From Amoebophrya sp. A120 (Eukaryota > Protista > Dinoflagellata), in assembly GCA_905178155.1 (NCBI GenBank), contig CAJINV010000021.1, forward strand, positions 225,760-289,759: a DNA stretch of 64,000 nt. Reading direction: 5' to 3'. Position numbers and translations under genes: made by a program. A model generated the notes under the pieces. That model ran no database searches, had not been told where the DNA came from, and was given only the letters and a program-made list of their open reading frames with translations. Shown piece after piece: positions 10,184 through 34,423 of the stretch; position 1 is the first letter of the stretch, and each line of letters opens with the position of its first letter.

Positions 10184-13100
10184 ATGTTCGACGAATCAGA
10201 AGAAGAGGAGGGACGAGCGCGGGGCTTCGCGCTTGCCTCACACGACGAGAAGACACGACCTGGAGTTCCTGACAAAGAAATTGAAAATTCCCCATTCCAC
10301 CCCGAGTCGGTCCACGAGGTGTACGACCTCGAGGCAAAAGAAAACCCGAACCGCCCCGTTGCCGAATCCGTGGATTGGGTCCTCACCTTTTCCCAGCTCC
10401 GGAACTTCTCCTTGGTGATAGCCGCCGAATTGGTGAAATTGCACGACAAAGCAGAAACCGATGAACTTGTCGCGTCTACTACTTCGCGACAGGCTCAAGA
10501 AGGTGAAGGACGACTACAGCGCCGAACGGGGAAAGTAGAAGGACATCATGATGAACACCAGCAGCCGCTGCAGCTCCGCCAGCCGATCTTCGGCGTTGAT
10601 GTGTCTCGGGATAGCGTCTTTTTTCTCCCCCTGCTCCTCGCAGTCTCGCGGCTGGGCGGCATGGCGGTCTTTTTTCTCCGCGCAGAGAGCGAAAGCTTGT
10701 CCCGGAAGGAACGAGACATGTACCGGAAGAGGAACGAACAGGTAGCCGCGTTGGCAGTATGAGAGTGCACTAGTATAATCCTCTTTTTTCCCCTTCATTC
10801 TTTCGGCATGCAAAATAATGCCTAGCGCTCCTGTCTGTGCGTTTGCCTCTGGTGGGCACTGTTGATCTTGATGCATTACAAAGATTCCTAAATGGACCCG
10901 AGTTTCTTGTTGCTATGAATTTGTTGTAGTTGCTGTGGGCGGCGCTCAGGCTCACGCTCCTCTGCTGCAAATGAGCGGGAGAAGGGGGAGTCGTGCACTT
11001 CCATAAGCAGATTTTCGCGTGGATGAGACCTTGTGGATGAATGAGAACTGCGAAACAGAGATTTTGCGGGAGGATGCGGATGTTGCTGTTGATTCACCTT
11101 CATCAACAACCCATCACGACGTCGAAATAGTAAACGATTACCGCTGTCGTGGTCCTCGAGCTGCCCCGGGCTTCCGCTGTGTGCTGTCAAAAGCACGGGA
11201 AACCGACCTGGAAAAGGTCGCAGTGGACTTTCGGGCAAAGACGATACAGAAAATAGTGGGCCGCAGTAAAAATTATTCAGCAACTAGAAATACGACCACG
11301 GCGAGAAGTGTCCAAGAATTAGCAAATAAGACTGATACCATCAGCAGCAAATCGACCGGCGAAGGTGCTTCTGGTTCTGGGATGCCGCAACTGGAGCTGC
11401 CCGAAGATGAAAGCCGCACCGTGGTGCAGGATCTGAACGTACCTGGGAAGAAGGTCAAAAATTTGGGCGGGAAAATATTAAATGCACATCATGCACTCGT
11501 TGAGAAGAAAAACCTGATCTTCCTGCTAATGTACACGGGTGGAACTGTGAAGGAGAAAGTCGCAACGGTCACGCACGCCATGTTTTTGCACGAGTACTGG
11601 AATTACGCGAAAATTGTGCCGCAGGAGTTGTTACTCGGATCATTAAAAACGGAAACGAAGGAGGACAACAACAGCATCTTCACAAGTTCAAGTGAGATGA
11701 ACTACACGACAAAGAGCCGCGTGAACAAGCACAGAGAAGATGAACAAAGAGAAACAAGAAAGCAAAATAAAGTGTTCTGCAACACGTCGCTCTACTGGGC
11801 CGCGTCCACGATTGGGCAGATCTCGATTGCTATAGCCCTCAATGCGACGATCTTCTTCACGAAGGAATCCGGGATCGATTTCGAAGACCAGCGGGAGATC
11901 TTGCAAAAGTATCGGTGCAACATCCTCGGCGTCGCCCCGACGGTGTTGAAGTCGCTCTGTCCGAGTTTTGACGTGCGGAGGGACTTGGGCATATCAAATG
12001 CAAAAATGTCTGGGTCTAGAACAAAACAAGTTGTCATGCTCAATCTGAGTCATGTAAAAATCTGTGTTGCATGAATTCCAAAAGCTGTCCACTTTTGACC
12101 TAGTCGAGAGACAGTCTGTTCTCATGCAGGATACGCATGGTATTGGTAGAATTCATCTCACAGAATGAGAATCTGTCATGCCATGTCCTACATACCAGAC
12201 CCTATGGGTCATGGAAAACCTGCATGACAAGTCTGGCACTCTGCCAGACCGAGACTCTCTTGCAGTTGATAGGGCAAAGACAACGTGGATTTGATCTTCA
12301 CGTGGGGCGAAAAGCTATGCACTGCAAAAGTATCGTACTCGTAGTAATTGCAATGATGCATTACAAATCTTTCTCTGAAGCAAAACCCGCATTACAAATT
12401 TCATTTTTCATGCTGAAACAGCCTAGGGCCAACACGAAACAGCCTACATCTGTCCGAAACAGCCTAGGGCCAACACGAGCCATACATCTGTCCGAAACAG
12501 CCTAGGGCCAAGACGACGCCGTGAGGACGACCACAGGGGGTCCGTCTCAATGATGATGATGATGATGCTGAGGAAACTTGTAATGCATTTCTACGAATGA
12601 TAATGCGATACTTTTGCAGTGCATAAAAGCTCCCCGACCACTTGGCCGAGAAGTTTCGGGGTGTGTGTGCGATCCGCGAACTGCTGATCGCGACGGAGTA
12701 TTGGCTGTGTCTGTACCGGGACCCGTTTGATGAGATGCCCCTTGCAAGTACTGAAACGGGACAACTACAGTCGCAAGGCAGCACATCAGCCCTTCGCTTC
12801 GTCCCATCGCTGAACCTAGGTGTGAAAGTCGTGCCGCAGACGCCGTTGGATTTCAGCGAAGATGAGGAGCCACAACAAGTTGCTCGTCTGAACGATGAGC
12901 AAGGAAAAGGAAGAACCGCGCGGCCAACATCAGCATCAACTACAGCCATTGCGAAGTCGTCATCCTCTTTGACGCTAGCGGATATCGTGAAACAAGCTTC
13001 ACATCAAGCGGATCTACATGGTACAAAACACAATGACTCGGCAACAGCACTACAGACCCATCGCGGAGTGTTGCATTTCCAGGGTGACTTCGTCACGCCA

Positions 13101-16100
13101 GGGTATTTCGACCCGGTGAAAAAAGAAGTCATTGCGAACATTTCTTCAGAAAGCAGGAAAGGCGAGGAACTGCGGGATTGTACGTCACAATCAGAAGTAG
13201 GAGGAATTTCTGATGGAGAAGATGCAATAAACAGACCGCGAGAAAAGCCTTCCACGACTGCGTGCTGGTGGAACACTTCAGACACAGTGGAGCTCGTTTG
13301 GTCTTCAAATAAATCGGCAAAAGAACCAGATCAAGATCCTTACTCCCAGGTCCGGCTGAAATTCATCGGGCGGTCGGACTTCCGGGTGAAGATTAACGGC
13401 GAAATGACCGACTTGGGGCAGGTGAAAGAAAATATTGCGAAGTATCTGGCAGAGACTGAGCAAGCACAATCAGCAGCAGGAGTTGCGAGCACCACGACGA
13501 CGAGCAATTCCAATCGTTCCTCTGGTCGTCAAGAACGGGCTGCAGAAGAGCCACTTGCTGCGAAGATGATCTCGAATTCCGAGGTGGAGCTACTCCGTTT
13601 CACCGAGGTGTGGCAGCGGTACCCAGTCACTTTTCACCTGTTTGTCGCTTTGGGACGCCCGAGCAACGCGGGCGGGGAGAGAGGTGAAAATCACCACAAC
13701 AAGCCTAGCGCAACTTCTTCCGCAGCTGCGCTACCAACATCCTCGCCGACAAACGTGAAAGAGATCCTCGCTATCAAGAAGCTCGTTCCTTCCGCGCCGC
13801 ACATCAAGCTGCACTTCCTGCCGAGCACAGGCCTTCCACGGCACCCGGTTACTGGGAAGGTAGATCGGAAGGCGCTCAACGCGCAATTTAACGCACCGAT
13901 GTTCGGGTTCCCGTTCCAGGATGCGAGGGTCAGGTGCGGAAGGCAAGAAGCGGCAGTGGGGTCCCTGCGTGAGCCTGAGCTGCCCGTTGTTGACGTCGCG
14001 GCTGTTTCGTCCCTTGCGAAGAACATGGACGCCAGCAGCGAAAAGATGTTCTCCACGACGAGGGCCCATCAGATGGGAGGTTTGCACTACAAACTGCGGG
14101 ACGATGTTGAAGAAATGTGCATCAATGGCTCCGCGACAGGGGAGCGAGTTGAGCAAACATCAGCAGCCACATTAAGTGTTGAATCCGCAACAAAGACGAA
14201 GCAGGAGGAGCCGACATCGCAACACCTTCAAAATGCGACGCCACAAGAGAGAACAACGGAGAGCAGCAACTCTTACACTAGAACGTGCACCTCATCGCTA
14301 CTTCCCTCCGCAAAAACGCGGTGGACAGCCATAAGAAATTGGCTTCGTGAGCTAAGCGACGAGTATTCTGACGTCTACCGGGGTGACCATCCGGTGGAGA
14401 TTCCGGATTTTGTCGATCTTGTATTCGGAAAAGAAGTTGCTCAGCCACGCACTGAACAGACAGCTGTTTTCAGTGACGAGGAGGCCTGCTGTGGCGACCA
14501 CCACGCCCCCCAAGATGAAATGGAAAGCGCTTCTCTCTTTCACTCCGCCAGCGTCACACACCCCGACTACCGATTGCCTTTACCGGTTCCCTGTCTCAAC
14601 GCGAGGGGTTTCCAGGCCCTGGACGATCACGCGCGGCTGAATTGGGCCATCCGGCTGGAAGCCTGCTGGCGTCTCGGGCTCGGGCTTTGCTTAATACTCC
14701 TCGTGTTGACCAACGCGATCCTTGCGGTGGTTTCTGAGGAAGGTGATGTTGAGTTTTATCGACATACGAGTAGTACTAGTCCCAGCGCAACATCAAGCCC
14801 TCTCAACAACATCTTCCCCGCATCACTTCTCGCCCTGATCACAACTTTCCTATTGCGAAGGTTGTTCGGCTTTTTGCTCCTGGCTTACTGGGTCAGTTTC
14901 ATGCACGCGGCGCTGCTGCAACTGCTCCAGTTCCGCACGGCCGTCAGCGTGGTTTCCCAGAGCAAGAACTATTGGCGACAGCGGTTGGACCTGGTCCGCG
15001 CCTGGTTGCGGGAGGACATCTGTCGCGAGTTTCTACTCCGAGAGCTCGGCGTGTGTTTTTTTTTCATCGCGATGGCGCTCTGCGTTCAGATGTGGGACGA
15101 GATGGAAGAACAGGAAGGAAAACTCATTCGTGCTGAAAGACTTCTACAGGGCACTGCATCTACTTCATCACAAAAATCCTCTCGAGACGACATATACGAA
15201 AATTTTTACGACACCCCGCCGGTGAATTTTAATTTTCCTTCGGTACAACTACAACTATGTGCCTCATCTCTCCTCCACCTCCCCTTGTTCACATTTCTGA
15301 AACTCTTCCTGAAACTCCTCCCAGTCCTTCTCGGGGTCCTTGGTATCCTCTCCCACGCGCTACTCATCCGGCACCCGAGCAGGCTTTTTTTTTGGCCGGT
15401 GGTGTATTGGCAGGCCATCCTGCTTATCAAATGTAAAAATGTCTGGGTTTGGAAGATTGCCAGGCTTGTCATGCACATTTTGCATGACTCCTGATGTCTG
15501 TGATGCATGCCCTAGCATCACAGATTTTGTGAGGCCTTCCTGATGCCTATACCGCATGACAAATGCTCTTTCCGTGTAGCAAAACTTGGACTCTCTTTGC
15601 TGCTCATGCAATACAGATTTTTTTAGAATCCAAAATCAGCATGACAAGATGGATTCTTCCAGACCCAGACATTTTTACATTTGATACTGCTGCAACTGGT
15701 TTCGCCGACGGACGGGTGCGCGTGGCAACTGCAGGCATCCGGATTGTTCCAGCTCGGGTGGAAGCATTTGAGGTACCTGGAAATGCTTGGGATGGCGGGT
15801 GATGCGATTCTGCAAATGATTCGGAAGTCATACTCACGCTCAACAGCAGCTACATGGCTAGGATTTATTTCTGAGGACAAGACAGGGGACGTCGGTGCAC
15901 AGTGTAGCTTGTTCGACAAGAGAAGTAGACAAGAGGATGATCATGATACTACGACGCATGATGTCGAGGATGAGCGGCGCGCTGCTGGACGCGCTTCACC
16001 AGAACGAGACACGGCGGACAATTACTCACGTGGCAGAACTAAATTTTACGAGCGAAACCAAACCGAATCCCCACGTAGTTCCTCGTCCCAGCAAAGCCAA

Positions 16101-18271: not shown

Positions 18272-18970
18272 AGAAGGACAAACACACAGATCCGGTGTGG
18301 TTACAGTAAGGGCTTGGCTATTCCTCTTCTAGTGCAGTAAAGTTCCTGTTGAAAGTTCCTTTCTGTTTTGGATATTGTGTTGTTGGTGAGATATGATCTC
18401 ATGTTCCTGCCACTAGAAGAGACTTGTATGTGTAGAGACAGCATGCATTAGCTGCCTCGAGTCTGGCTACTCCATCTGCAAGATGATTGAAAACTACGCC
18501 AGGTAGAACCAAGGATGACAAACGCTAAAGCGGCCCTCGTACGGTTGGAAACTCCCACGCAGTTTGTTGCGTGCTGATGAAACTCAGTGAAGACCTTGCA
18601 GGCCATGCTTGACAAAGGTACCTTTCCTCTCAGTTGTTGCAGGCAGGTAGTGCTGCTACCTGTGCTCTCTTCGGAGCCCACAGTTAGTAGTGCCCCCTGT
18701 CAGTTGTTGTTTCATTCCATGCTCCACATAAGCGATACGAAGTAGAGGCTGTAAATGATGGAGATCCGCATGTGTGCGAAAAAACAGATCTGCATGAGAA
18801 AAATGATTAGCGTATTTGGTGCACAATCTGGAACTATATCCCCGACACTCGCCTCACAACATACAGTGCCCAGTTTCCAAAAATGCCTTTCGCATGCAGC
18901 TGTAGTTAAAAAGCTATCACCTCCTCGTGTCGTTAGACTCCACCTGCGCTGTAAGTATCGCCCTGGAAAA

Positions 18971-19576
18971 ATGCCCCCAGCCCCGATCCGCACATGCGCG
19001 AAGTGCGCAGAGAAGGAAGCTGATAATCAAGCTCTCCTTCGTGAGCGCTCTGAAAAGAATGAAGAAATCGCGGGATGGGAAAAGCGCTGGAAAAATGACT
19101 CTGTATCCATGGAGAACCAGCAGGAGCTCGCCTCTGTTCGCTTACGCCTGCGTGATGCGATCAAAGGCAAAAACAAAGCCATTATTGAGAAGAATGCCTT
19201 GAAAGAGGAGAAAAAAGAACTAGAAGAAAAGTATGAGGAATTGGAGAAAGAGTGCCAATTAGCTAATGCGCATGCGTTCCTTGGCGCGGAATGTGTGAAA
19301 AAAGCGCTGTGGCTGCGCGGTCAATGTAAGAGACACGAATTTAAGGACCTCTTAATTTGTGATCTCCCGCATAAGAAGACCCCATTCACAAACGAGCACC
19401 TAATCGCACAGATGCTCCCGAGTGATGAAGTTGCTGGCCCCCTGCCAGATCGTGAATCCTTAGAGAAGATGACTGATGCGGTGCTCGACCAGATGTCCGA
19501 TTTTCTCGGTCGCTGGTCGACCGATGAGCACTCGTTAAAAAAGAAGGAAGCCTCTAGCTCTAGTAAGAAGAAATAA
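18971..19576 (+). CDS. Hypothetical coiled-coil protein with N-terminal CxxC (~201 aa)
   Basis: MPPAPIRTCAKCAEKE... followed by E/K-rich heptads; downstream ATG chosen within ORF 18755-19576. Confidence 0.6.
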   Translation: MPPAPIRTCAKCAEKEADNQALLRERSEKNEEIAGWEKRWKNDSVSMENQQELASVRLRLRDAIKGKNKAIIEKNALKEEKKELEEKYEELEKECQLANAHAFLGAECVKKALWLRGQCKRHEFKDLLICDLPHKKTPFTNEHLIAQMLPSDEVAGPLPDRESLEKMTDAVLDQMSDFLGRWSTDEHSLKKKEASSSSKKK

Positions 19577-19850
19577 GAAAACGTTAAGAAGATTCCTGAT
19601 TACATTCGAGAAACATCTATGTCGTCACTAGAGCGAATTGAACTAGCTGCCTTGCACTAGAGCGAGTTGTACTACGTATCTATTTTCTCTTCTATTCATC
19701 ATCACTTATCGAGGGACACGGAGGAGTATCTACGTACCAGTTTTTAAGATGTACACAACTTCACATTTACAAATGCATTTGATAAAAATATAGAGCCAAG
19801 CTATCGTCATCATTCAGAAAACTAGCACCGCCACCCGTCACCTCCACAAG

Positions 19851-20472
19851 ATGCTGACAGTGCTAGTCACAGCAGTGGCGACATTGTTCGTCACTCCTGC
19901 AAGCTACATCATGCCGGTGGTAGCCGCAACGTGGTCGTCGTGCACTACTCGTGGCGGTCACTTCAGAATGCTCATGTTCTTTTACGGGACATCTGAAGTA
20001 TTTACTTGATATGTGATGCCCTCTTAGCACCTTCCATGAATGCACAAGTCTGTCATGACAAATTGCATATGTGAACTAATCCAACAATCAAATATTCCCA
20101 GGTCCGGATCTTGCTCGCCATGGCCGCATTTTCTTGGATGTTGGGAAACGAGGGCAGGATTCTCACCTACGAAGGATGCATTGTCGGATGCCTCCAATAT
20201 CTACTGTGGCAGATGGCAGAAATTGCGCGTAGTTACTACTTTATATTTGATATGATGACGATGACCATTTACAAATGCATGGCATGGAGCATGACAAATT
20301 GATGCGATGGTACGAAAATGCTAATCGAAATGTATCCAAACTTGACAAAACAGGTTGCTGCCGAGGAATAATGAGCAACACCCGCAGGATCCGTTTCATG
20401 CTCCAACAAAATAATCACGGTGAAGCTGTGGTAGTGCAAAATGACTTGCAAGTCATTAACAACGATGACTAG
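19851..20472 (+). CDS. Small hydrophobic (membrane) protein, 130 aa, 3 exons
   Basis: Exons 19851-19997, 20102-20228, 20354-20472 joined by phase-matched GT-AG introns. Confidence 0.6.
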
Positions 20473-21071
20473 AGTGAGTGGTGTATCTCCACCTGCTCTC
20501 GAAGACCTTTTTTTTGTCCTCAAGATGAATGAATCATTCCTCAGCTGAAAAGTGCTTCTTTTCATCAGCAGGAATCAAACAATCGAGCACTCCCAGCCCT
20601 GCACTTGTGCAGTATTACCTGTAAACAGCATAGCAGCCAAAGCCATGCTGTTAGCCATCATTGTGTTTGTTCGTTCCTATGACGCAAATTAGCATTGCAA
20701 GCCAGTACAGGATGAAAAACAACATCACGAAAATGTGACAGAGACTGGCATCACAGACTAGCACCAGAGAGCCGTACCATCTACATCACAAAGTAGAATA
20801 TAAATACCTATCTGCAGCATTACAGGTCTACCCGCAACTGCCGAGTGATTACAGAGTGAAGCAGAGAAAAACCACAAGAGAGATAGAGTGTAGAAATCGA
20901 GAATCAGCTGCACGAGGGGAGATGGAAGAAATAGAGAGATACAAACAGATGCGTCTTCCATTTCTTCTTTCCAAAAAACACTGTAGGGCTGAAACTTTTT
21001 CGTGATCATAGACAGAAACCTTGAAAATGAAGTTTTGGTCCTCCGAATAGCTGGATTTCTCCCCAGTGAAG

Positions 21072-24000
21072 ATGACAGGACGTAAAAGCAGTACCGCTGA
21101 GAAGCGGAAATCTGCCGTAAAGGTATGCCCTTTCTCTAATGATTACTTTGGTTTATTGTTTTGATTTTTGCTTCCGACAGTATACAGAAGTTGATGTCTT
21201 ATCACCATGACAAAACCAAATTAGCATAACAAATTCCATATTTGATCATGAGTCCTTGAATTATTATCAGGACGAAGCCCAGCATAAGCCGAGCCCCACG
21301 CCGAAAGCCAAAGCCGCTGTTGCGAAAGCTAGATCGAGGTCAGCATCGAGAGAGAAGGATGAAGGACGTGACACAGACCACGCTATCGACAAGAACGTGA
21401 CGCAGCCCGCGACATCGCCAGAGGACAAGCCCCTGACACAGTCCACGACAGCATCGCAGGTGAAGACCGTGTCGCAGTCCTCGTCCACGACAGAGGTGAA
21501 GAGCGTGTCGCAGTCCTCTACGACACAGGAGATGAAGGGCATGTCGCAGTCCGTGACGCACGACGAGCAACCCGCAGCAAGCAGTGTAGCGACACCCGCC
21601 CGAGCAGCTGGGAGTAGCACAGCTGCAACCATCCCGGCGTCAGCAGCAAAGCCGTCACGTACAGCAGGCGATGAACTGCAACAGGCGGCAAAAGCACCAC
21701 CTCCCGCCCCCTTGCCAGCAAACGGCTCACTTGCACCGCTACAAGTGATGCTTACGCAAGACTCGACCCTCGGCTTCTCCCTGAAGCCGGTGCCGACCAC
21801 CGTGGCGGCGCCACAGCCACAAACGGTGCCATCGATCGATGACAGGCTAGTCATCGACACTGCAGAATTTGGCGAGATGAACACGCTGGTGCAGCAGTTT
21901 GAAGAGGAGGGAGCGCTCGCTCCGCTCCCCCCGGGCGTCTGCGATGACGATGAAGCAGAACCTAGCGTCGTCAACCCCACCACCCCCAAGGTAAGTGATA
22001 TGGTGTTGAGCAGCACCAATAGTAAAGGGGTAAAACTCTTTGACCTGGGACAGGTCAAAAAGGCAAGTTTAGCCTCGGGTGAGCCAGTGGAGAAGAAGCA
22101 AAGGAGAGCTTCCTTTGCAGGAAGCGACCAAGATGTGCAGTCACAGCAGCAGACGAAGGAACCCTCCCCCCTGGACCCGAAGCCGTCAACTAGTTGCATC
22201 GCCTCACACGTCAAGTCGGTAGACGTTGCAGGGCTACGCAGCATCGGTGCTTCTGACGGGGAGATCCAGATGTTCCTCTGTGACACCCACGCTCAAACGC
22301 TGCTCGCCGAGTTCCAGGAAATTGCTGATAAGACAGGATCAGTGCTGTCTGACCAGGCATACCTGGACCTGTTGCCTCCGCCCGGATACATCAGTTCCGG
22401 TAGGCAGGTAAAAGTAGCTTTCGAGTCGGGCCCCACGCGGATAGGAGGTGCAGGTGTGTACGCAAGATTGAGCGACCCCCGCGGGTCACTAGCACCGCTG
22501 TGGGCCGCAGAGCTGGACAACTGTGACTTCTCCTTCAGGCAGACAGCAGCATATTTGTGGAGAATCGCTAACGCAATTGCACACGACCTGGACCAGAAAA
22601 TAGTGCTTGAAAGAAGTACGCAATTCTTGCGCCTCATGGTGTACGACTTGAACATCGCGCCGTGTCCGCAAAAGCCCGTGTCCGCAAAGAAATTGTGGCG
22701 AGAGGAGATCCTCTGCCAATTTGCTGCGAAGGATCCGGTGACGTTCGCGATCTACGTCTTGACCGGCCGGCTATTCGACGTGAACACCTTCACAGCGAAG
22801 TACGGGAAAGAGAAAGCGAAGAGCCAGAAGATAAAGCTGGAGACGCAGCGAGACTTCCGGCTAGGAGTCACAGTCACAAAAGTGGCGACCACGGGCTGCC
22901 AAGACACCGAGAAACTCTCGATCTCCGATGTCGACCGCCTGTGGAGAAAAGACCTCGACGTCAACGGTCAGCTCCTGCCGATTGGAGATGTGGTGAAACA
23001 GTACGTCCTTTCAGGAGCTTTTCTCCGCCGCGCGTGGCCAGTGCTCGTAGCCAGCGACTGGTACAACGTTGCTGCGCTAGCCGAGCTCCTGGGCGAGAAA
23101 CTACACACCATCCTGTATGCGCACCAACTGTCGTTCGAGACGCTAAAATTGTACAACATCCTTCCTGTTTCCGTGGTATCGGAAATATTCGAGCTATCGA
23201 GTATTACGTGGGTCAAGTTGCTGTACCCGCACATGTCCGACCTCGGAATGGTGCCCTTTAATGTGGTGATGGACAAGTTCCCGGTCGTGCATCCGACCGC
23301 GACCAACGTAGCGATGCACATGATCATGTACACCTCGCAGTTTTGGAAGAAAGATGGTGTGCGCATCACGACAGCCAACGCGGTAGAGAAGAGATTCCCG
23401 CACGTCGGTGGCAGCACAGATCCAGCCCGTGTCTGGAATGATCATATTGAGGATATGTTGGTGATGTGCATGAGCAATCACTTCATGGAGGGTCTCAGCC
23501 CGCTCTTGCACTACCAAGACATTCTCCCGCGCGGCCGGCACATGTACCACAAAAATCTGACGTACCAGAATTCCGCTGCAGTGAGCACATATCTGGACCC
23601 TGTCACCCTCCTGCCCACGACCGCACTCGACGACCGCACCACGCGGCCGAACAATAAAGTGTTCAAGAGCATCTGCCAGGAGAATGCGTACTTTGAGTCC
23701 AACCCGCGCTCGCGCACCGAGCACATGTACATGGGCCGGTTCGCCCGGTCGCAGGCCCTGTGTCTCACCATCACCAAGCACATCATCGATGACATCGGAA
23801 ACTGCCACAGCAATGACACCTTCGCGCCGACCACAGCGTCCAGGATGTCAGTGCAGCAGCCTCTTTTGCCTGAGGTGCGAACAAGATCTGCTGTACAAGC
23901 CCCGATGCTTGACGAACAGATAGCGGATGACACGCCGGACGACGCAGCAGAAGCGACGAGAATTCAAGAGCAGTTAGCCGCTGGTGCAATCGATGCTGAT

Positions 24001-26939
24001 ATGCACCTCGAAGAATCGGAAGAGGAGTTTCTCTTTCATGACTCCATCCAGGAGCAAGAGATGTTGCTGTCAGATGCGATGCAAAACAGTCGCAAAGGGG
24101 TGAAACGGAGCAGGCCCGCGAGCTCCGCCCCTGCAGCCGCACCTGCGGCATTCGCGTCGTCCTCGGCATCGTCTTCCTCGTCCGCCCAGCCGAAAATGGA
24201 CCCCTTGGAATTGTTCAAGTCGAAGTGCAATTCGGCATTTGGGAAAGGGAAAGGAATGAAAGGTAAATCCGCAGGCAAGAGCAAAGGGAACTTCCATCAC
24301 ACTCCGACCGGTACAGGCCTGTTCCAGAATGAGATCACCCCCGCTACAGCAGGAGTAGATGACGATGAGGAGTACGAGCCAGAAGCGGAGCCTCCCGCGC
24401 CAACATGGGACTGGCAGAATGCCACGGAAGAGGATCTCTTCCCGGCGGCACAGCGCAAAGGCAAAGGCGGGAAGGCACCGATGGGATCCATGTCGGGCAA
24501 GAAAGGAGCACGGTCGCACCCGTACTCCTCCCCGTCGGCGCCAGCAGCACCGAAACTGCACCCCAGTGTCTGGCACTATGGAATTCCATCCCAGGGTGCG
24601 TGCAACATGCACCCGTCAGCAGCCATGTACCAGCCATACGCGTTTCAAGATCCCTTTGCTCCCCACCACGCCGACAACTTTCACCTGCTGCCACCACCAG
24701 TAGAACCATCCACCGCGAATGCGTATGGTCGGTGCACTCGTCGCGCAGGACGAGTTGCGATCGACGAGTGGGGGTATCCACTTATTGAAGATGCAGAATC
24801 CCCAGCAAACTGGGATTATACATCTTCTATGCATTACAAATTTCCTCCCACTGCTCTTTTCTCCCGAATTATAGTGTTTAGCATAGGATATTCTGGCTAG
24901 GGTGTATTCTTGTTGTCTAGTATTACAACAAGCCTGGTGATGACCATCTTATGATGTAGCCAAGTGCAGACTAGCGCTCGGTGTAGGGCACGCCTAAATT
25001 GTGCCGGCGCGCCTAAATAGTGCCAGTCGGTAGCATGGTGACAGACAGCAGAATTCCCAGGAACTTGATCTGACGCAGGCTATTTTGTATTTTCCATTTG
25101 TGAAGAAATACAAATATTTGCCCGAATCAAGTATTTAGCATACCGTATTCTGGCTAGGGTGGTCTCCACTTCCTCACGTCACCAGAACAGCTGCGTGATG
25201 AGAGCAACCGAAAGGATTTGATCCGTCCTGTGACAGACTAGCGCTCGGTGTAAGGCACGCCTAAATAGTGCCGGCACGCCTAATTAGTGCCAGTTGGTAG
25301 CATGGTAACTGATAGATGGGAACCAAACTCTGACCAAAGCTGGTTTTTGGTCCCCCCTCGTCCGTTGCACAAGCTGCGCTGTAGCGCGCGCACAAGAGAA
25401 TCGCTGCGAGCTCAGAGCCTAAATTTCATGTCGCCATCAGCCTGCAGGCTCGTCTGCAGTGTGGTGTAGCACTAGTTCTCATCATCTCAGCAATTTGTCG
25501 TGCCCACTTCGGGCATCACCTCTATAGGTAGCCAGAATATGTCATGCTAAACACAGAATTAGCAAAAGAAAAGAGCCTCTCCTCCGCCTGCATACCAGTT
25601 GAAGATCAGGAAGCCTTCATCGCCGCCGCCTCGTTCGAGATGTACTGGAGATGCACCGGCACCGCGACAGACGCGCAGACAGTAGTCTTGAACTGTCTCC
25701 TGTTCCGCATTCTGATGCGGATTGTGATGACGAAAATAGGACTAGAGGCCTACGAGATGTACTACTCCGACGAAGAACTAGCAGCATCCACGAAGTCCAT
25801 GTTCTGCACCAACAAAGCCACGCTAGCATATGTAGCCTCTCAGCGAGTCCTAGCCGTCAAGAAGACCATGGCGCAGGCCGCGGTGGTGTTATCGCTGAAC
25901 GGATTTAATCCGAAGAGTTATTCATCCGAAGCCGAGGTAACAGGTGCTGTTAAGGTAATGGCAAAGCCACCCTTTTCCGACACGTCCTTGGTGACCGCCA
26001 TGCTCACCCTGGGAAAGACGATGTTGACAGCAGTCGCGTGGCAATATGCATTGCAAAAGTGTACTGCCTCAGGATTCTTGTCTGCATGCTTGTGATGCTA
26101 ATTTGAATTGTGATTGCACATTTATAATGCTGGGTCAGTACATCTTCACCCAGCATAACGTAGGAGCAGAAACCAAAGTGAACTGCACCTTCCTAGGTCT
26201 TAAAACTGAGACCTGGGCAAAAGTGCAAAAAAGCTGCGAAAAGGTTTTCGACACCCTTGCCCTCAATGAGGGCAAAGAACATGAACTGGAACTGAAAGAA
26301 GCCACCACTATTTCCGATAACCTCTCGTCTACGAAGTTGATTTCCGCCCTCGTCGCGGCCTCCGACGTTTTCCCACAGGACAGCCTCCTTGATCGCCTTG
26401 TGGAGCTCGAAGACAGGTTGAAGAACACGTTCGGAATAGTTACTGCAGTAGAGAAAATGCAGAAGCGGGAATTGATAAAGCACATGTCCATCTACCTCTC
26501 TGGGCTCAAAAAAGCCCTGGTGACGCCTTCGATCGACGACATCGTGGTGTGGCTGAACAGCAGGAGATCGTTGATTCCGTTCGCACAGAAGGCCACGATC
26601 ACCACGAAAGGCAAGAACAAAGGGAAAGGTAAGCAAAAGAAATCGTGGACCGTCACCAAGGACAATGAAAAAGGGAAGACCAAAGGTAAGGGTAAAAACA
26701 AAAAAGGAAAAGGAAAAGGTAAAGGAGGTGCAAATTCCTCTGACTTTGCCTCTATGGTGGATGATTATTCTACGAGAAATGGTTGTACTCGAGTCAGCTT
26801 GCGATTACCTACGCATGACAAATGCTTGTCCTCAGGGAAAGCAGTATGATACTTTCCCTCTCTCCTCGTCAAAATTGCAATGCAACTGGTACTAGCACAG
26901 CATTTCTGCACTTGCATATCAGCGGCGCCGCGACCATAG
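21072..26939 (+). CDS. Large Gag-like/unknown protein (~1564 aa), 5 predicted exons
   Basis: Exons 21072-21122, 21271-24826, 25599-26044, ~26127-26751, 26923-26939 give one open frame with KGKGK-rich patches. Intron 1 is GT-AG; the others are TAT...ATA type. Gag call is positional only. Confidence 0.6.
24859..24899 (+). promoter_or_regulatory. Conserved upstream motif, copy 1
   Basis: ttctcccgaattatagtgtttagcataggatattctggcta. Confidence 0.65.
24899..25086 (+). ncRNA. Box C/D-like RNA 1 with twin GCCTAAATW-loop hairpins
   Basis: 5' hairpin cttgttgt/acaacaag; terminal stem agcctg/caggct; C gtgatga 24937-24943, D' caga 24967, C' tggtga 25036, D ctga 25070; T-rich end. Confidence 0.7.
25118..25156 (+). 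promoter_or_regulatory. Conserved upstream motif, copy 2
   Basis: ttgcccgaatcaagtatttagcataccgtattctggcta. Confidence 0.65.
25156..25348 (+). ncRNA. Box C/D-like RNA 2, paralog of RNA 1
   Basis: Stem cagct/agctg; C 25195-25201, D' 25234, D 25330; core 25234-25309 nearly identical to 24967-25042 but the guide segments differ; T5 end. Confidence 0.7.
25395..25529 (-). ncRNA. Box C/D-like RNA 6, antisense to the host gene
   Basis: On minus: 5' hairpins, stem ttgctg/cagcga, C atgatga (25485-25479), D' caga, C' ctgatgg, D ctga (25415-25412). Confidence 0.65.
25529..25567 (-). promoter_or_regulatory. Conserved upstream motif, minus-strand copy
   Basis: Reverse complement reads ttttgctaattctgtgtttagcatgacatattctggcta(c). 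Confidence 0.6.
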
Positions 26940-26953
26940 CAAAAGTGTTCAAG

Positions 26954-27399
26954 ATGGACAAACAACGGGTGCTCCGCGAATGCGGATGCGTCATGTATGT
27001 CCTCGACAAAAGACGCATCACGGTACCTATTTACTACAGCTTATTTTGTTTTGTAATATTTAACTGTTGCCCGAACTGATGTATTTAGCACACGTCATTC
27101 TGGCTACCTAGACCTGAGCTCTTCGTAAGATATTGCGAAGTTGTGTGGGCGACTGGCCAACGCCGCTAACACAACGGTGGCCAAGTCGTGGTTCAGGAGC
27201 CGGATATGGCCACGACTAACCACCCGCCTTTTCTCCCCATCATTGTACTAAAACAAACTCCCAGGTTGGTGGAAAGCAGTGGTACTGCAAGCACAAGTCC
27301 GGCCACGAAACCGAACACGCAACTGCTGACGCATGGTGCGAGGAGGTGGAAAAGGTTAAGAAAATGCGTAGCTGGGACGAAGAAGAGGAGGATGAGTAA
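26954..27399 (+). CDS. 67-aa Cys/His-containing protein with acidic tail, 2 exons
   Basis: Exons 26954-27022 and 27265-27399; phase-0 GT-AG intron with tactaa branch-like site. MDKQRVLRECGC...WYCKHKSGH...DEEEEDE. Confidence 0.65.
27067..27106 (+). promoter_or_regulatory. Conserved upstream motif, copy 3
   Basis: ttgcccgaactgatgtatttagcacacgtcattctggcta. Confidence 0.65.
27106..27232 (+). ncRNA. Structured RNA 3, class unknown, intronic
   Basis: Hairpins cttcgtaa/ttgcgaag, gttgtg/cacaac, ggtgg/ccacc enclosing agtcgtggt/gccacgact; T4 end. Confidence 0.55.
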
Positions 27400-28100
27400 T
27401 TGACTCATCCTCCTGTGATCAAGTTTTTTCTTGAATCAAAATGAATGAAGAGCCAAGGATGCTCCGAACGTGTGGCTATGACTACACAGAAAATGTACAG
27501 CGTAGTTTTGCTGGAATTGAGACTTCGTATTTTCTCAGTAAATGAACGGAAGAATTGATGTGTTTTTGTTAAAATCAAAACCAATTTGAGAACAAGAACA
27601 CGCTTGCTAGCGTACTCCCGCCAAACCACGCTGCAATCAGCCCTTGTCTCATGGTGTGCAGCATGTGAGCGTGCAAGTAGTCTGCATCACTCGGTCTAGA
27701 GCGAAAAACAGCAACATAGCAATCTGTTGAGAGCATGTGAAGCTAGAACATAGTGCTACCTCACGGAGTAGACACATGCTGAGCGAACAGAGCGTGAGTG
27801 ACAGAGTAAAAAATGTACAGAGCACGCCTTTAAAAAAACTAGTCCTCAAACGCTGTAGGGTCAGAGAGGTTGTTCTTTGTGAGCACAGCAGCACATCACA
27901 AAAATGAAGTAAAGAAGAAGTTGCGTCTAGCACGCCGCCGGAAAAGAGTACCCGCTTTTACTAAAGTCAAGTGTCTTTCTTTGCATCGAAACTTGTGTCA
28001 TGATTGCATTCTTCTGTTGCCGTCGATGCTTGAACGCAATTCCCATCTGAAATTTGAGAATTGCAACACAACCACAGGTACACGCCCGCTTGTCTTGACC

Positions 28101-31100
28101 ATGGCCGCACACCTTGCACGCCACCGAAGGCACGCCCAGCATGACTACTCGCAAGACCTTGTGCAAGTAGTCCGCAATGTACGAAAAGCCTCGTGCAGAG
28201 AAGAAAAGAAAAGGGTAAGCCCCTTTTTCTTTTCATGACTTCTCTGCTGCAATAGAAACTTTCATTCGGCCCGCGATGCGCTAAGGCAGGCAGCCCAGCA
28301 ATAATAGACCAAAAAAGTGTTATTCGGCTTTTTTGCCCGAAGTTGAGTAATTAGCAAAGGTAATCTGGCTACCCTCCTTTTAGCTTCCCCATAGGAGTAA
28401 CAAGCCGCGGTAAGTGGTACAGGGGGACGCCCCTGATCGCTAGTCCTAGCCACTCGATTAGGACAGTGCAGCATGCCGTTACTGAACCAGTGATGATCCG
28501 GGAGGGAACGTACAACCCTTCTGGTGAGCTGACAACATCAGGTCCCTGCCAGTCGCTAACGCCGCAAGGCAACCTCTGCGAACGGCTAGCCCACCCCGCG
28601 CAGCGCGCTCCCCTTTTTTCCGCGCAGCGCTCCCCCCCAAATGAGCTATAAATATCGAAAATGCCACCTTTTTTGCCCGAATCGAGTATTTAACAGACGA
28701 ATTCTGGCTACCCGGTTTTCCGTTTGCTCTACTGGTCAGAAGCCGCGTTGGTGGTATGGGGGGACGCCTCCTTTCGCCTAGCATCGTAGCCTACTCACAC
28801 CAGCAAGATCAGGGTCGCTCCCTGTCCGCCTGGCAGTCCTCGGACACCTTCACGTTGGGCTAGGTCCACCGCGCGCACGGCCCCCGGGTTATTTTGTCTT
28901 CCCCAATCCTCCTCTCTTCCGTGTCAAGTCTGTGCTGGGCTGCCGACCACCTAGCCGTAGCGCTAACTACTAGGACATGCATAACAAAATGCATCACAGA
29001 TACTTACGGAGGTCGCGGAAAGGATGTCCATGGGTGTAGAGGACGTCATCTCCAAGAAAAATCTAGATAGTGTGAGACTGGGCCACGCACAAGACCTAGA
29101 GGTCCAGCCCGCGCATGTGAAGGACTTAAATATTTATTACACAAAGTGTGGTAGCACGGCGCTCACGACAGATGTCAAAGCGCCCGCCCTGCTAGCAAAT
29201 ATTGCAAGAGACTGCGATTTCGCAACGCAGGAGGTACGCGACAGGCTGTTTGGCTTCTATGACAGCGATCAGCTCTGGCACCCGACAGGCCACTTCAGCA
29301 TGGGGATTCCAGTTAGAGGGATAATAGATAAGTACGGCCTCTGGGAAGGCGCAAAAAACCTGTCAGACGACGAAATTCTTAGACTAAATAACTGCCCAGT
29401 CACCCCCGAAGCTAGAGACCTGGCACGAAAAGAATTCTCGACGGTAAGGCGGAAGCCATACCCTTTCGAGACGCCAGAATTGCTGGAAAAAGGGATAGAA
29501 GAGATCAATAGGAATATTTTTGATCCGTCGAAGCCAATAGCGCCAGACAACAGTCCAGTGCTGTGGCCGACGAAGTCGCCAGAAGAAGTAGAAAAAGACC
29601 CGAAGGCCGTGATAATACCGGTCTTCACCCTAGGCCAAAAATTCTGCCCGATAGGGCAATTTTACAAAAAATATCGCATCATAGCAAACGAAAAGCACAT
29701 CAATAACAAAATGTCCGCGATACAGGAACACCTTAGCCTTAGCGACTTCCCGACAATCGTCGATGCAGTGCAGTCTGTGATTGCCCCGGGGTGTGACATC
29801 CCAGTGGTGTTTCTCAAGAACCACCTGTACACGCAAATCCTAGAAAATGCTGACACAGGAGCTTCTTGGGAAGACATAGATAGGATCAAAGGAGGGTGGA
29901 AGCCACCGGATAACTCCGATGGCTTTGTCCCATGCTTGTCGAAACTAGATTTGTACCAAGCGTACTTTCAGCTAGCGAACAATGAAAGTGAAAACTACTA
30001 CATCAGTGTAATACGCCCAGATGGGTCCGTAGAAGTAGTGCGGAATACAGCGCTTACATTTGGCAATTTGCATTCGGTATTCCACTTTGTAGGCAGCTCG
30101 TCCGAGTTGTTACAAAAAGTCTTACGTTTTTACTTAAGAGCCCCCTTCTACGTGTACATCGATGATATTATCAGCATGATGATAGCCGTGCTTGCTGCGC
30201 ACGCACTGTCGTGTGCCAAGCGGATAGTGGCCGCACTAGGCTACGCGCAGAGCGACAGAAAAGATGAGGTAGGTCGCATAGGACAGACTGTAGAAGTGTT
30301 AGGCATTAACTACCGCCCCGAGCAGGAGAGCGCACACTTTGACATGCCCCCAGACAAAGTGGTGTCTGCGCTGGAATTGATAGATGACTTCCTCATCCTT
30401 GTAGCGTGTTGCGCTGTGACGTTAGTCAAAACACAGCGGCTACTAGGCACCCTGATCCACCATCTGTATTTTCGCAAATATGCGGATTGTGGCGCAGCGA
30501 TCTCCTTGATGAACAGGCTCACGTGCCCGCGCGAGCAAGGGCGTATGAACGCGCCCCAGCAAGGAGGCACACGAAAAGCAGCATCGGTGCTGCTTCTGCA
30601 AACCAGAGATGCTATCGAGAAAAACGCCCCCTTTACACTATCAGCAGCTATGGTACATGAGCAGTGCGCTGAACTGTATACAGACGCCGCACAAGACGAC
30701 GATGGGATATGGCTCGGAGGCGTCATACACAGAGACGACTCCGTGCCGTATTACTTTCGACTGTCACACTCGAAGCTAGTAAAAAACTTCGAGCTGCCCA
30801 CACGGCTAAAAAACCGGAAAATATACTTCTATGAGCTTCTTGCAATTTTCGTAGGCCAAGTTCTGTTCGAGCAGATGCTCAAGAACACAGTAGGAATATC
30901 GCATGTAGATAATATAGGGGCAGCCTTCGCAGTCGTGAAAGGAATCGCCCACGACGTACCGGGGGCAGTGATGGCATCCCTGATAACGCGCCGCAGGCGC
31001 GATGATAATAACAAAGCTATCACGCACTACGTGCGCAGCAAGCTAAATCATTCAGACGCAGTCACACGAGATAGACAGCGCGACTTTGAGCTGTTCCTGT

Positions 31101-31222
31101 CGAAGACAGGAGCAGTGCATGTTGATGAAATTCTCCCGGACTGGGCACAAAAACTAGGTGAAGCCCTGCAGTTTGTGTCGTCAGAAATCGAGAAATTTGA
31201 AAAAATTGTGAGCAGTTTGTGA
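28101..31222 (+). CDS. DIRS-type reverse transcriptase-RNase H, 2 exons
   Basis: Exons 28101-28214 and 29000-31222 (phase-0 GT-AG). RT motifs KLDLYQAYFQL, LTFG, YVYIDD, EVLGI; RNase H motifs LYTDAA, ELLAI, VDN, YVRSKLNHSDAVTR. Confidence 0.9.
28333..28371 (+). promoter_or_regulatory. Conserved upstream motif, copy 4
   Basis: ttgcccgaagttgagtaattagcaaaggtaatctggcta. Confidence 0.65.
28371..28619 (+). ncRNA. Structured RNA 4, class unknown, in the RT intron
   Basis: Shares 5' block aagccgcg..gtggta..gggggacgcc..ctag and 3' block ggctag..ccacc..cgcgca with RNA 5; T6 end. Confidence 0.55.
28673..28710 (+). promoter_or_regulatory. Conserved upstream motif, copy 5
   Basis: ttgcccgaatcgagtatttaacagacgaattctggcta. 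Confidence 0.65.
28710..28895 (+). ncRNA. Structured RNA 5, paralog of RNA 4
   Basis: Terminal stem acccgg/ccgggt begins exactly at the end of the motif; conserved blocks as in RNA 4; T4 end. Confidence 0.55.
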
Positions 31223-31881
31223 AAAGATATTCCCTCACCTCAGGTGCAGCGAAGGCCAAAAGCACAAGCAAAAGAGCCCAGGCGCCCGAACTCTCGTGCA
31301 GCGAACCTGTTCAGAGACCCAAAAGTAAAGCTACGAATCGATGAAGAACTTCGTGTGTGGCCAGCTGAGCTTTCGTACGGCTATGACTACGCAAGAAATA
31401 GATCGTGCAGATGGGCAGCGTTCGTAAGCTGGTTTAACGTGAACTACACGAAGAAAATTAGAATACCAAAATATAATGAGCCGCTGGCTACGCTCCAGTG
31501 CCCGGAAATGACGTTCATGTCAGAACTATACGCGTATGGTAAGCACCTGATAGACGTAGAGCAAGGGAATTCGTACCATCTACACATCAGCACAATCGCA
31601 CAAAGGCTAAAGCAGATCAATAAGCTAGAATCCAGGTCCCCGCTCGCCCACGAAAATCAGTGGACATGCTACGCCAGCCTGAATAGACTCAAAGCCCAAG
31701 CAGACCCACAAAAAGCCACCCCCGTCTCTAGGACGCAGATGCAGGGCCTTCGAGCATCAGATCTGATACTAGTAAAATTTTGGATCGCGACAGCATTTCG
31801 CATTAGTAGTTTTGCACCAGTATCAAGCGAGTGCATCTATGACATAGGAGATCAGGATGGAGTTAAGTGGGCAGAGATATN

Positions 31882-31977
31882 TCGCGACAGCATTTCGCAT
31901 TAGTAGTTTTGCACCAGTATCAAGCGAGTGCATCTATGACATAGGAGATCAGGATGGAGTTAAGTGGGCAGAGATAT
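31882..31977. repeat. 96-bp duplication at an N (probable assembly overlap artifact)
   Basis: Matches 31785-31880, separated by a single n at 31881. Confidence 0.85.
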
Positions 31978-32981
31978 CAGGCGGACGGACCGCCGCCGGA
32001 TTTTTCCGCTAAAACGCGGCTGAAAAGATGCTAAAAGAAAAAAAAGCGGCCCCGGGGCCGCGCGCGAGGCGGCGAAGCTTTTCCGGGCTGGTGCCGGCTC
32101 GAAGGGGGCTGCGGCCCCGCCGGTCCGGAGGCGCGCCCCTACCCCGGCCTTTGCTTCCCGGCGGGCCCCCTCGTCGCGCGAGGCCCCTCGGCTTCCCTTT
32201 GGCGGCGTTTTGGCGGCCCCTTCTCTTCCCCGCGTTGCATTTGGCCGGCGCGGCGGCCCGGCTCCCTTGGCGCCCCACATTCTTTCACCGGGGGGTTTGT
32301 TTTGGCAGACCGGCCGGGGGGCCCCCGGAGGTCCGCGGGCCGGACCCGGAAGCCGGGAAAAACCCGGGGAAGCCGACCCGGTAAAACCCCAGAAATGGCC
32401 AAAAAAGGAACGCGCTAAAATTTTTAGCAGACCCCAAAAACCGACGAAAATTGGCAGGGGGGGTACGAAAACCCTCAGGAATGATTAGGAAAAATTTTAG
32501 CACGAAATTAGCAGAGAATTAGCAGACATATTAGCAGACTTTTTAGCATGTTTTCAGCACCAAAACCGGACCCCAAACTTTACAAATTAGCAGAGGTTTA
32601 GCAGACTTTTAGCATATTATTAGCATACTATTAGCATATAATTAGCATGATCCTCGCGGACCGGCAGCCCGGTGAGAATCCAAAGAATGCGCCAGCAGGG
32701 GATCCCGGAAAGCGGGGGGGCGTTTTTGGGGGGTTCGTCCGGTTCTCCTCGGAAAGTTTTTTTGTCCGGCTCCGGGCAAAGGACACTGGCGGCGATTCCA
32801 GCTGCGAGCAGAAGCCTGCCATCAATGCATTCGCCGCGCCCCTTCCTTCGCCGGGGCCCCGGGCCTTCGTATTGTGCCGCCCCCGCAATCGCGGCCCTCC
32901 GGATTTCGCATGGTGCGGATTTTTTTTAGCACTATAACAGCACCAAATTACGAAAAAAGGCCGGCGGCGATCGTCGCCCTG
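31978..32981. mobile_element. 1004-bp non-autonomous hAT-like TIR element, 8-bp TSD AGAGATAT
   Basis: Imperfect TIR caggcggacggaccgccgccgg / ccggcggcgatcgtcgccctg; TSD at 31970-31977 and 32982-32989; central cluster of ttagca repeats. Confidence 0.85.
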
Positions 32982-34423
32982 AGAGATATTTACAGATCAT
33001 GTAAAATTCAACCCACTACCAGGCGAACTGTTTTCTGTCTTAGTCCCGCACCGATGCGTAACAGTCCCAAGTAGCTGCTCCACAGATGCACGGCAAGCGT
33101 ACTACAATGAGTTAGTACAGGGCAAGTTGAAAAGCACGCCGCACTGCTGTCGCAGGACAGCAGCACTAGCACTCAGGCTGCAACTAGCATCCTTGAACCT
33201 AGGTGGTGTGTATGCAATACCCGAGTTCAATATGAACAGGATAGCGGACCACTTTGGGTGGACCCGCAAGACAGCAAGAAGAAACTTCCTGCGCTACACT
33301 AAAGATTACAAGATGCATGTTAAAAGTGAATTTTTCTTCCCGAAAGAGACCACAAACTGGATTCTTGAGGGCCTGTTTGTAGTAGACTCAGACTGGCTCG
33401 GCTTTGATGCGGCAACCGCCATGCACTACCAAGCCGCAGCAGGAAAAGACATTGCACTTGTGTACAATGCAGAACAACAGATGCTACAGGTGCAGCGTCA
33501 GCTAGTGTTTCTCAATCAATTTCAGTAAAGTAAAAATCCCATGCCTGGCCAGAAGGCCCACTGTGCGCACCATCGTGCGCTCTCTCAAGGGTGTTCATCC
33601 CAGACCTGTGAAGCACTATTGGCAAGCTAGATCTTGGATGCCCACTGGGTCGTACTGTAGACATGATCACTACCAGTTAGTTTCATGTAGTAGTGCTCAT
33701 TTCGTACTGTGAAGATCTATCGTGATCGTGCTACGCAGTTCTGGCCCAATGCTGTTGGGATGTTGGTCGCGTTGTGCGTGCCCGCAACGCTCCAGTTGCA
33801 TCCTCGAATGAGATTTGGTCTGTGTGAATATCGGATCCTCTCACTGTTTGTCCACGCTGAGATGTATAATAATTCTGCTTTACCCACCACCACGGCCACA
33901 AGCTCCTAGTGTGATTCAGAACAAATCTTGCGAAAAAAATTATTGATACATCGTATGAAGTTACCCAGAAAAAAACAAGATCTGTTTCTGTGTACTGAAT
34001 CACACCGCGGCGCTGGTGTTATAATCGTATCGTAAAAATAAAGAAGAATTATCCTGCTGAACTCACCCCGAAAATCTTGAACTTGAAATTTTTTTGCCCA
34101 GTCTTGGTCCATAACGCATTCCTGTTATTGACTCCACAATTTTCATCTTCACGTCCAGCTTTTTGGAACGAAGAACAAACGGTTCCTGATCAACGTCGAA
34201 CAAAAAGCCTTGCACGACACCATATCCACCATTGCAGCGAAGAACCTTCACAAATCTAAAGAACTGAAAAAACCCTTTAGATTTCGTGTGTCAGCAACCA
34301 CAGCAAGCTTTGTCAAAACTACACTTTTTGATAAAGCCATTTTCGACGTCCAAGAAGCATAATTCAACTTGCAAGAATATTTTATCGATAATTTCAGATC
34401 TGTGAAACATCTGAAATTTCAAA

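Follow-up and report, generated by a model that had tools for sequence, protein, structure and literature searches.

Two paralogous box C/D RNA genes with a common internal insert among retroelement frames of Amoebophrya sp. A120

The closest described relatives in layout of the RNAs treated here are the scaRNAs (small RNAs specific to Cajal bodies) of the box C/D type, human scaRNA9/mgU2-19/30, U90 and mgU2-47 and those of Drosophila, which are likewise built as C-D'-insert-C'-D with an extra module between D' and C'. In the excerpted text of PMC4041459, their localisation signal is an apical hairpin, interchangeable between guides, and the internal module is separable from the guide arms; we liken it to the insert described below. 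Human U2 small nuclear RNA (snRNA) is methylated at A30 and G19 under one guide, scaRNA9 (PMC7960923, in excerpt). Three other systems bear on the locus. Type-3 promoters, with an upstream sequence element (USE) and SNAPc, place a common element before unrelated small RNAs whose genes end in T-run terminators (PMC8287931, in part); examples are the genes of U6, U3, the signal recognition particle (SRP) RNA, MRP RNA and telomerase RNA. DIRS, Ngaro and VIPER retroelements have the order gag-like, reverse transcriptase (RT)-RNase H, recombinase (excerpts of PMC8547959). The TIGR-Tas system lies in a mobile context and has C and D boxes on either side of its two arms (PMC12045711, in part). We analysed a stretch of 64,000 nucleotides (nt) from Amoebophrya sp. 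A120, hereafter the window, in which two paralogous genes, RNA1 and RNA2, fit the sequence definition of box C/D RNAs, share a 64-nt insert and likely lie inside a retroelement of DIRS order. All coordinates are positions within the window, and the two RNAs are laid out as follows.

24931-25081, + strand: RNA1, box C/D RNA, from sequence and box scan, its 5' end placed by motif spacing
24937-24943, 24967-24970, 25035-25041 and 25070-25073, + strand: RNA1 boxes C (GTGATGA), D' (CAGA), C' (ATGGTGA) and D (CTGA)
24944-24966, 24971-25034 and 25042-25069, + strand: RNA1 D' arm, insert and D arm
24987-25024, + strand: two tandem 19-nt units of RNA1, with loops at 24992-25000 and 25011-25019
25083-25086, + strand: T4 behind RNA1, which is closed by the terminal stem AGCCTG/CAGGCT
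25188-25342, + strand: RNA2, box C/D RNA, from sequence and box scan
25195-25201, 25234-25237, 25302-25308 and 25330-25333, + strand: RNA2 boxes C, D', C' (ATGGTAA) and D
25202-25233, 25238-25301 and 25309-25329, + strand: RNA2 D' arm, insert (19-nt units at 25254-25272 and 25273-25291) and D arm
25344-25348, + strand: T5 behind RNA2, which is closed by the stem CAGCT/AGCTG

Both RNAs, and a third, compact one (RNA3, below), have a C box RUGAUGA near the 5' end, a D box CUGA near the 3' end and a terminal stem, so that the proposal of two box C/D-like RNAs in the initial annotation, which was made from the letters alone, is borne out. The D' and C' boxes are degenerate (CAGA, ATGGTRA) but kept in both paralogues. 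RNA1 and RNA2 have an 82-nt block in common, 90% identical (blastn E 4e-25). The insert between D' and C', first given as about 76 nt, is real; its length is 64 nt, the larger figure counting the boxes too, and 59 of the 64 positions are identical. Each insert holds two tandem copies of the unit GGCRC-GCCTAAWTW-GTGCC. This repeat had been read as two tandem hairpins, and it is indeed present in the sequence, but folding does not favour the twin hairpin, which is less stable than the minimum by 1.5-2.5 kcal/mol (z-scores 0.11 and -0.02) and competes with a long irregular stem, the five differences between the inserts being compatible with either fold. The pair probability of hairpin 1 is 0.08 in RNA1 and 0.98 in RNA2, and that of hairpin 2 is 0.03 and 0.15, respectively. 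A likeness of the 9-nt loop to loop 1 of U5 proved weak, with four of nine loop bases shared, no Sm site and no Rfam match to U5. At the gathering score Rfam gave no match, and at E up to 5 a single microRNA match, judged to be chance; over 24.8-29.05 kb three matches were obtained, all sub-threshold, and a tRNA search found none. Telomerase RNA was considered and rejected: the loops share CCUAAA with the TTTAGGG repeat that has been reported from Amoebophrya, but no 8-nt template permutation is present.

The arms of RNA1 and RNA2, which were correctly quoted in the initial annotation, are unrelated as it had claimed, since 1346 and 404 of 2000 shuffles align equally well; their lengths of 21-32 nt are in the range of ordinary guides. 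The further claim that the guides had been swapped does not hold up, because no swap event can be pointed to and the spacer between promoter and RNA has diverged as well (its score was reached by 48 of 2000 shuffles), so that old divergence accounts for the unrelated arms as well as swapping does. Similarly, a constant scaffold with variable guides is what is seen, but this layout is common to ordinary C/D guides and C/D scaRNAs, and alone it is no proof of a new reprogrammable system.

Each of the two genes is preceded by a motif of 36-45 nt, which recurs at four more sites; all six copies lie within 24.9-28.7 kb, and the units behind them are listed with it here.

24863-24899, + strand: upstream promoter-like motif 1 (CCCGAA..GTRTTTAGCA..TCTGGCTA), overlapping the stop codon of a long upstream open reading frame (ORF)
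25120-25156, + strand: upstream promoter-like motif 2
25529-25554, - strand: upstream motif 3, without the CCCGAA part
25399-25495, - strand: RNA3, compact box C/D RNA without the insert, from the box scan
25485-25479, 25456-25453, 25437-25431, 25430-25416 and 25415-25412, - strand: RNA3 box C, box D' (then a short hairpin), C'-like box, D arm and box D
27070-27232, + strand: motif 4 and unit 4, an RNA candidate of about 90 nt with two hairpins (27141-27228), ending in T4; z -1.89
28336-28619, + strand: motif 5 and unit 5, an RNA candidate of about 210 nt (28404-28613), ending in T6; paralogue of unit 6
28676-28895, + strand: motif 6 and unit 6, an RNA candidate of about 150 nt (28742-28890), ending in T4

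The motif pattern gave five matches on the forward strand versus none in 100 shuffles, with a partial sixth copy on the reverse strand, and an RTGATGA box follows 38-44 nt downstream in three of the six copies, compared to 0.006 per random site. Runs of T4-T6 end five of the six units, which is consistent with transcription by RNA polymerase III; RNA3, which faces RNA2, is not followed by a T-run. Among metagenome contigs the pattern was matched six times. Five of these matches have no RNA family behind them and were treated as chance. The sixth, on an eukaryote-like contig (L003, 2993-3166), lies 41 nt before a tRNA-Sec gene (67 bits) that is followed by T5, and the likeness reaches past the pattern (48 nt, 81%, E 5e-5). 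Animal tRNA-Sec genes use SNAPc-type promoters. Viral contigs gave no match. In the DNA run X1, a motif copy was matched in six of the seven other contigs listed, one of which appears to hold two copies, and the host thus employs the motif elsewhere. An upstream element at a fixed distance, found also before a gene of known class (the tRNA-Sec gene being the single outside example), is what is expected of type-3 promoters. Hence, RNA1 and RNA2 are likely stand-alone type-3-promoter genes, as judged from their sequence. The motif would be a SNAPc/type-3 promoter driving each RNA, with a start about 30-35 nt downstream; the 5' ends would then fall at the terminal stems. The locus differs from known genes of this type in that six motif copies cluster in a mobile-type locus, and the USE consensus rows in the excerpt of PMC8287931 do not include CCCGAA..TTAGCA..TCTGGCTA. 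The RNA runs X5 and X6, which may not contain this strain, yielded 0 and 1 read on 24700-29200 and have no bearing on expression; run X3 (share 0.06) gave short pieces only and is not used as support.

The genes lie among frames of a retroelement.

21072-24900, + strand: long ORF that precedes RNA1 and holds a candidate GT-AG intron (21123-21270)
25544-26095 and 26046-26849, + strand: two gag-like frames, matching the pre-RT domain of related tyrosine-recombinase polyproteins
29024-31222, + strand: RT-RNase H ORF of 732 amino acids, open, with a splice-acceptor candidate at 28999 that keeps the frame
31244-33528, + strand: frame resembling tyrosine recombinases, split into the pieces 31244-31880 and about 33016-33528

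Neither this element nor the promoters, the third C/D RNA and the three further RNA gene candidates had been noticed in the initial annotation. The RT-RNase H ORF has 121 relatives, of which RVT_1 is matched by 22 of the 34 aligned members, and the best PDB matches of its profile are the RT/RNase H of Ty3, as expected of a protein with both domains; the window protein alone has no Pfam match, a word-index search with it was also empty, and no RT relatives were found in viral contigs. In a search of 514 frames with the pre-RT profile, frame 26046-26849 reached E 5.5e-8 (partly through a K/G-rich stretch) and frame 25544-26095, which is collinear, ranked second (E 0.19). Both recombinase pieces match the C-terminal domain of the RT-bearing relatives (best E 1.4e-13 and 3.5e-10), and the motifs R, HxxR, HxxW and Y can be read in them by eye; a Pfam recombinase match is absent from both pieces and from 28 relatives. 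Between the pieces are an assembly N and a GC-rich sequence of about 1.1 kb. At 31785-33000, a 96-nt duplication around the single N, followed by a GC-rich stretch of about 1 kb that contains TTAGCA repeats, interrupts the frame, and is either an assembly artefact or an insertion. From its gag-like, RT-RNase H and tyrosine-recombinase-like frames, the element appears to be a retroelement of DIRS order.

Several relatives carry the whole element as one polyprotein of 1400-2100 amino acids; a family of such large single-frame gag-like/RT/RNase H/recombinase polyproteins (P0002-P0005, P0011, P0018 and P0041) spans 1300-2100 amino acids. Since units 4-6 lie between the gag-like and RT frames, they are inside the coding region of the element. 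The gag-like frame has RNA1-3 immediately upstream of it, and the long ORF 21072-24900 precedes these; RNA1 and RNA2 are likely within the element too. The GT-AG candidate and the in-frame acceptor at 28999 suggest that the RNA-gene stretches are introns of the polyprotein gene, in which case the RNA genes would travel with the element. A 13-nt motif (TATGCATTRCAAA-like) recurs at 24828, 26045, 10870, 12316, 12355, 12625, 56816 and 57375, near probable exon-intron borders; two of its copies flank the RNA1-3 region, and it occurs on other X1 contigs as well. In run X1, 24700-29200 is contained in one 13.5-kb contig, which would span about 18346-31880 if collinear. This contig has a depth of 39.5, while the others listed have 20-33, and it differs from the window at 11 positions, all on A; together these hint at two near-identical copies, depth here not being a copy number. 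In comparison to DIRS-order elements, the coding region is broken by small-RNA-gene stretches, and the element occupies about 15 kb, versus about 6 kb for the Ngaro element of Cafeteria. In the titles and abstract openings covered by the literature search, no retroelement with promoter-bearing C/D RNA genes was seen. Three features are new here: the 64-nt insert, the motif of the putative promoter, and the location of the genes amid frames of a retroelement.

With somewhat less than even confidence, we favour the reading that RNA1 and RNA2 are scaRNA-like guides carried by the retroelement, with arms for snRNA, U2 being the best-named candidate. On this reading they would likely direct 2'-O-methylation of snRNAs, in the case of RNA1 most likely of U2. 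The boxes, stems, shared insert and unrelated arms are observed. Transcribed from the promoters described above, the RNAs would assemble with the Snu13, Nop56/58 and fibrillarin of the host on C/D and C'/D', as is usual in this family. The conserved insert may be a docking or localisation module needed by both RNAs whatever their target, by analogy with C/D scaRNAs. The target panel consisted of 28 non-host RNAs, Rfam-checked, from eukaryotic contigs in bacterial metagenome-assembled genomes (MAGs) and from L003; it included five snRNAs and, for rRNA, four large-subunit (LSU), two small-subunit (SSU) and two 5.8S sequences. On U2, both arms of RNA1 pair over seven contiguous Watson-Crick base pairs through position -5, at sites U18 and A30, 12 nt apart, and so are predicted, if weakly, to put these two nucleotides at the fifth base from D' and D; the two arms have TGAT in common. 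This dual pairing was found in all four U2 sequences tested, and shuffled arm pairs equalled it on the five snRNAs in 17 of 3000 trials. The arrangement is like that of scaRNA9, one RNA aimed at two nearby U2 sites with A30 among them (excerpts of PMC7960923). The U2 loci were selected by a motif that contains the D-arm site of RNA1, a site also found in the Rfam consensus line, so that its presence in these loci is by construction; among their 11 distinct 5' ends, three are not U2-like upstream and two lose the D' anchor. A 15-nt U2 motif occurs at 120 loci in viral contigs, none with U2 context, and a primer scan for internal transcribed spacers gave no match. RNA2 would possibly have a diverged host snRNA as its target, and RNA3 may, on this reading too, methylate the first U in the loop of the insert (24995).

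A number of results weigh against this reading. No single arm is significant (p for the best scores is 0.23-0.98 on snRNA and 0.06-0.95 on rRNA), and none of the duplex-energy tests with the snRNA set reaches significance (65-291 of 300 shuffles are as good). When snRNA and rRNA are both taken as targets, a dual match of the RNA1 type is found in 173 of 3000 shuffles. The threshold of 7 bp within 20 nt was set after the U2 match had been seen, and three RNAs were tested. Guide pairing is usually 10 bp or more, and the 7 bp of RNA1 with canonical U2 falls short of this, a difference from C/D scaRNAs. The D' arm of RNA1 points at U18 and not at the known G19, and its D arm does better on an SSU rRNA than on U2, with 10 Watson-Crick pairs and one G-U (p 0.06) on contig L236, which we take to be dinoflagellate-like. 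For RNA2, there is no snRNA match in the panel, and its dual match, on one of the four LSU sequences, is at chance rate (174 of 3000 shuffles). By eye, the GU-repeat stem of C/D scaRNAs is absent from RNA1 and RNA2, and the Drosophila C/D consensus of the Cajal body box, as given in excerpts of PMC4041459, is matched at 5-7 of nine positions, never at its G. No homologue of the insert was found elsewhere and the hairpin pattern has no match in viral contigs; covariation is therefore lacking for the insert. As to the element, the upstream ORF 21072-24900, whose layout is roughly like the N-terminal part of related polyproteins, has no homologue in a word-index search, scores E 3-7 against the profile of the relatives, and may not belong to the element. 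Terminal repeats, which would be looked for in DIRS-order elements, were not found in 17.8-35.5 kb, and the assembly breaks within the recombinase gene. Finally, an insert of tandem 19-nt repeats, an own promoter and T-run in place of a host intron, and a location among retroelement frames set the two RNAs apart from C/D scaRNAs, and the 19-nt units are too short for the H/ACA domain found in some scaRNAs. We do not class RNA1 and RNA2 as scaRNAs, for they have no known Cajal-body signal, nor as U5 or TIGR RNAs.

The strongest alternative, doubtful but to be taken seriously, is that the insert is the working part: the GCCUAAWUW repeat would bind a protein or nucleic acid as a decoy or scaffold, the C/D boxes would be caps and the arms linkers, and RNA3 would be the real guide, of the loop. 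Indeed, the insert was kept at 59 of 64 positions while arms and spacers decayed alike, and no arm of RNA1 or RNA2 has a significant target. Moreover, the D arm of RNA3 is the exact complement of the whole first 9-nt loop of RNA1 (24992-25000), and pairs over 8 nt with two more loops; the pairing begins at -2 and puts the first U of the loop (24995) at -5, so that RNA3 may methylate this U. As good a match was found by 99 of 3000 shuffles on the other five units, and the 8-mer occurs nowhere else in the window. However, six arms were tested, which raises 0.033 to about 0.18, the loops of RNA1 are predicted to be mostly paired, arm lengths of 21-32 nt fit ordinary guides, and no partner of the insert is known. 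The D' arm of RNA3 also pairs with the insert, over 7 bp and not in the -5 register. The site predicted for RNA3 is not equivalent to those in the U5 loop, since the human loop is methylated at G37, U41 and C45.

Next in rank, and rather unlikely, comes the view that RNA1 and RNA2 guide methylation of rRNA in the ordinary way, the insert being an accessory, and that the element captured them or simply has them as neighbours. They share with box C/D snoRNAs the canonical C and D boxes, the degenerate D' and C', the terminal stem and one 11-bp duplex with dinoflagellate-like SSU rRNA; this duplex, of the RNA1 D arm on L236, is the best anchored one of the six arms. The D' arm of RNA2 forms 8 Watson-Crick pairs and one G-U on the L236 LSU, with the D arm 17 nt away, and RNA3 weakly resembles a plant rRNA guide family (snoZ221/R21b, a C/D snoRNA; 18.9 bits, E 2.1, below the cut-off of 44 bits). 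Yet five of the six arms have no 10-bp match in the LSU, SSU and 5.8S sequences, no match survives correction for six tests, and guides of rRNA need no shared 64-nt insert; this conserved insert and the lack of an Rfam family at the gathering score are differences from box C/D snoRNAs. The initial annotation had held that guides both matching standard rRNA sites would make these ordinary snoRNAs; on the non-host rRNAs this was not the outcome, one of the four arms reaching 10 Watson-Crick pairs plus one G-U.

It is very unlikely that the genes derive from host RNA genes as copies, now silent or in decay, which landed in the element by chance. A paralogue of unit 4 does exist at another place in the genome, but RNA1 and RNA2 have both kept their promoter motifs, all boxes, stems, T-runs and the insert, while change in spacers and arms has reached saturation, a pattern that needs selection, and no second copy of the insert at 80% likeness is present among the X1 contigs listed. 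Highly improbable, despite the location in a recombinase-bearing retroelement and dual arms between C and D boxes that also fit TIGR stem-loop units (PMC12045711, in excerpt), is a role in the life cycle of the element itself, with the RNAs guiding DNA targeting of the TIGR or bridge type, priming, or integration close to RNA genes of the host. Unlike TIGR-Tas, the locus is eukaryotic and has singly promoted units of 150 nt and not a processed array of 36-nt units; no Nop domain was found in 34 ORFs of the window or in six element frames at E up to 5 (two single-sequence models, with predicted local distance difference test scores of 35 and 55, being too poor to exclude a remote fold); and within the window the matches of all arms stay at chance level (69-146 of 150 shuffles). 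A dual match of RNA2 at 55204-55215, - strand, antisense to a host ORF, was rejected as being at chance level.

If the scaRNA-like reading holds and the arms target U2, a mobile element supplies guides that modify the spliceosome; the element would likely direct chemical modification to RNAs of the host, for instance U2 of the splicing machinery. The short target sites predicted from the arms can be looked up in the host genome. The upstream motif, with no chance matches in the window, is a specific probe with which to find the small-RNA genes of this lineage, snRNAs that are missing or divergent among them; USE motifs have led to telomerase RNAs in this way (PMC8287931, in part). A fuller version seems improbable as a whole: six small-RNA genes would form a cassette in the polyprotein-gene introns of an active syndinian tyrosine-recombinase retrotransposon, under a host snRNA-type promoter, in which two C/D RNAs with a new docking module direct host fibrillarin to U2, or to a divergent RNA that resembles U2, and methylation of the module's loop falls to the third. 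If true, the transposon would retune the spliceosome of a genome with mostly non-canonical introns in which U1 was not found. In excerpts of PMC7789003, U1 was detected in neither Amoebophrya A25 nor A120 and U5 is missing in A25, both have many non-canonical introns, and their mode of splicing is left open. In another Amoebophrya, most introns are of the GT-AG kind and none of the five snRNAs is missing (PMC12005148, in part).

The remaining units have features of their own. The paralogue of unit 4 lies on a separate 7.9-kb contig of run X1 (record 2), and 11 of the 13 listed changes fall within the first 31 nt from the end of the motif; unit 4 is possibly an unrecognised host small RNA. Units 5 and 6 start with GCCGCG at +32/+33, their 5' and 3' ends are predicted to pair, and they have no Rfam match. 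Unit 5 carries two inserts, one with CTGA-N4-GTGATGA and a CTGA-closed hairpin; a possible long-range pairing with a bulged U presumably recalls the P4 helix of RNase P/MRP.

Among the eukaryotic contigs in bacterial MAGs, three (L218, L239 and L240) hold compact clusters of U2, U4, U5, U6, SRP and 5S genes; those of L239 and L240 include U1 as well and are tandemly repeated, and one U2 of L239 has a changed base in the region that pairs with the branch site. Elsewhere in the window is a P-type ATPase whose closest named relative, at 49% identity, comes from Amoebophrya sp. A25. One introner-like family of four inserts (7470-7955, 11990-12273, 15424-15686 and 57163-57428; about 260-490 nt) interrupts host ORFs; they show inverted repeats at their termini along with direct repeats of 4-5 nt and resemble the introners of Amoebophrya (excerpts of PMC7789003). 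Positions 1-608 consist of a degenerate purine-rich tandem repeat of about 18 nt. Three paralogous ORFs on the forward strand (43642-45246, 47010-48923 and 52366-53580) have no Pfam match at E 0.01 and carry HxD...H...R-type motifs, which we take to recall 2-oxoglutarate-Fe(II) dioxygenases.

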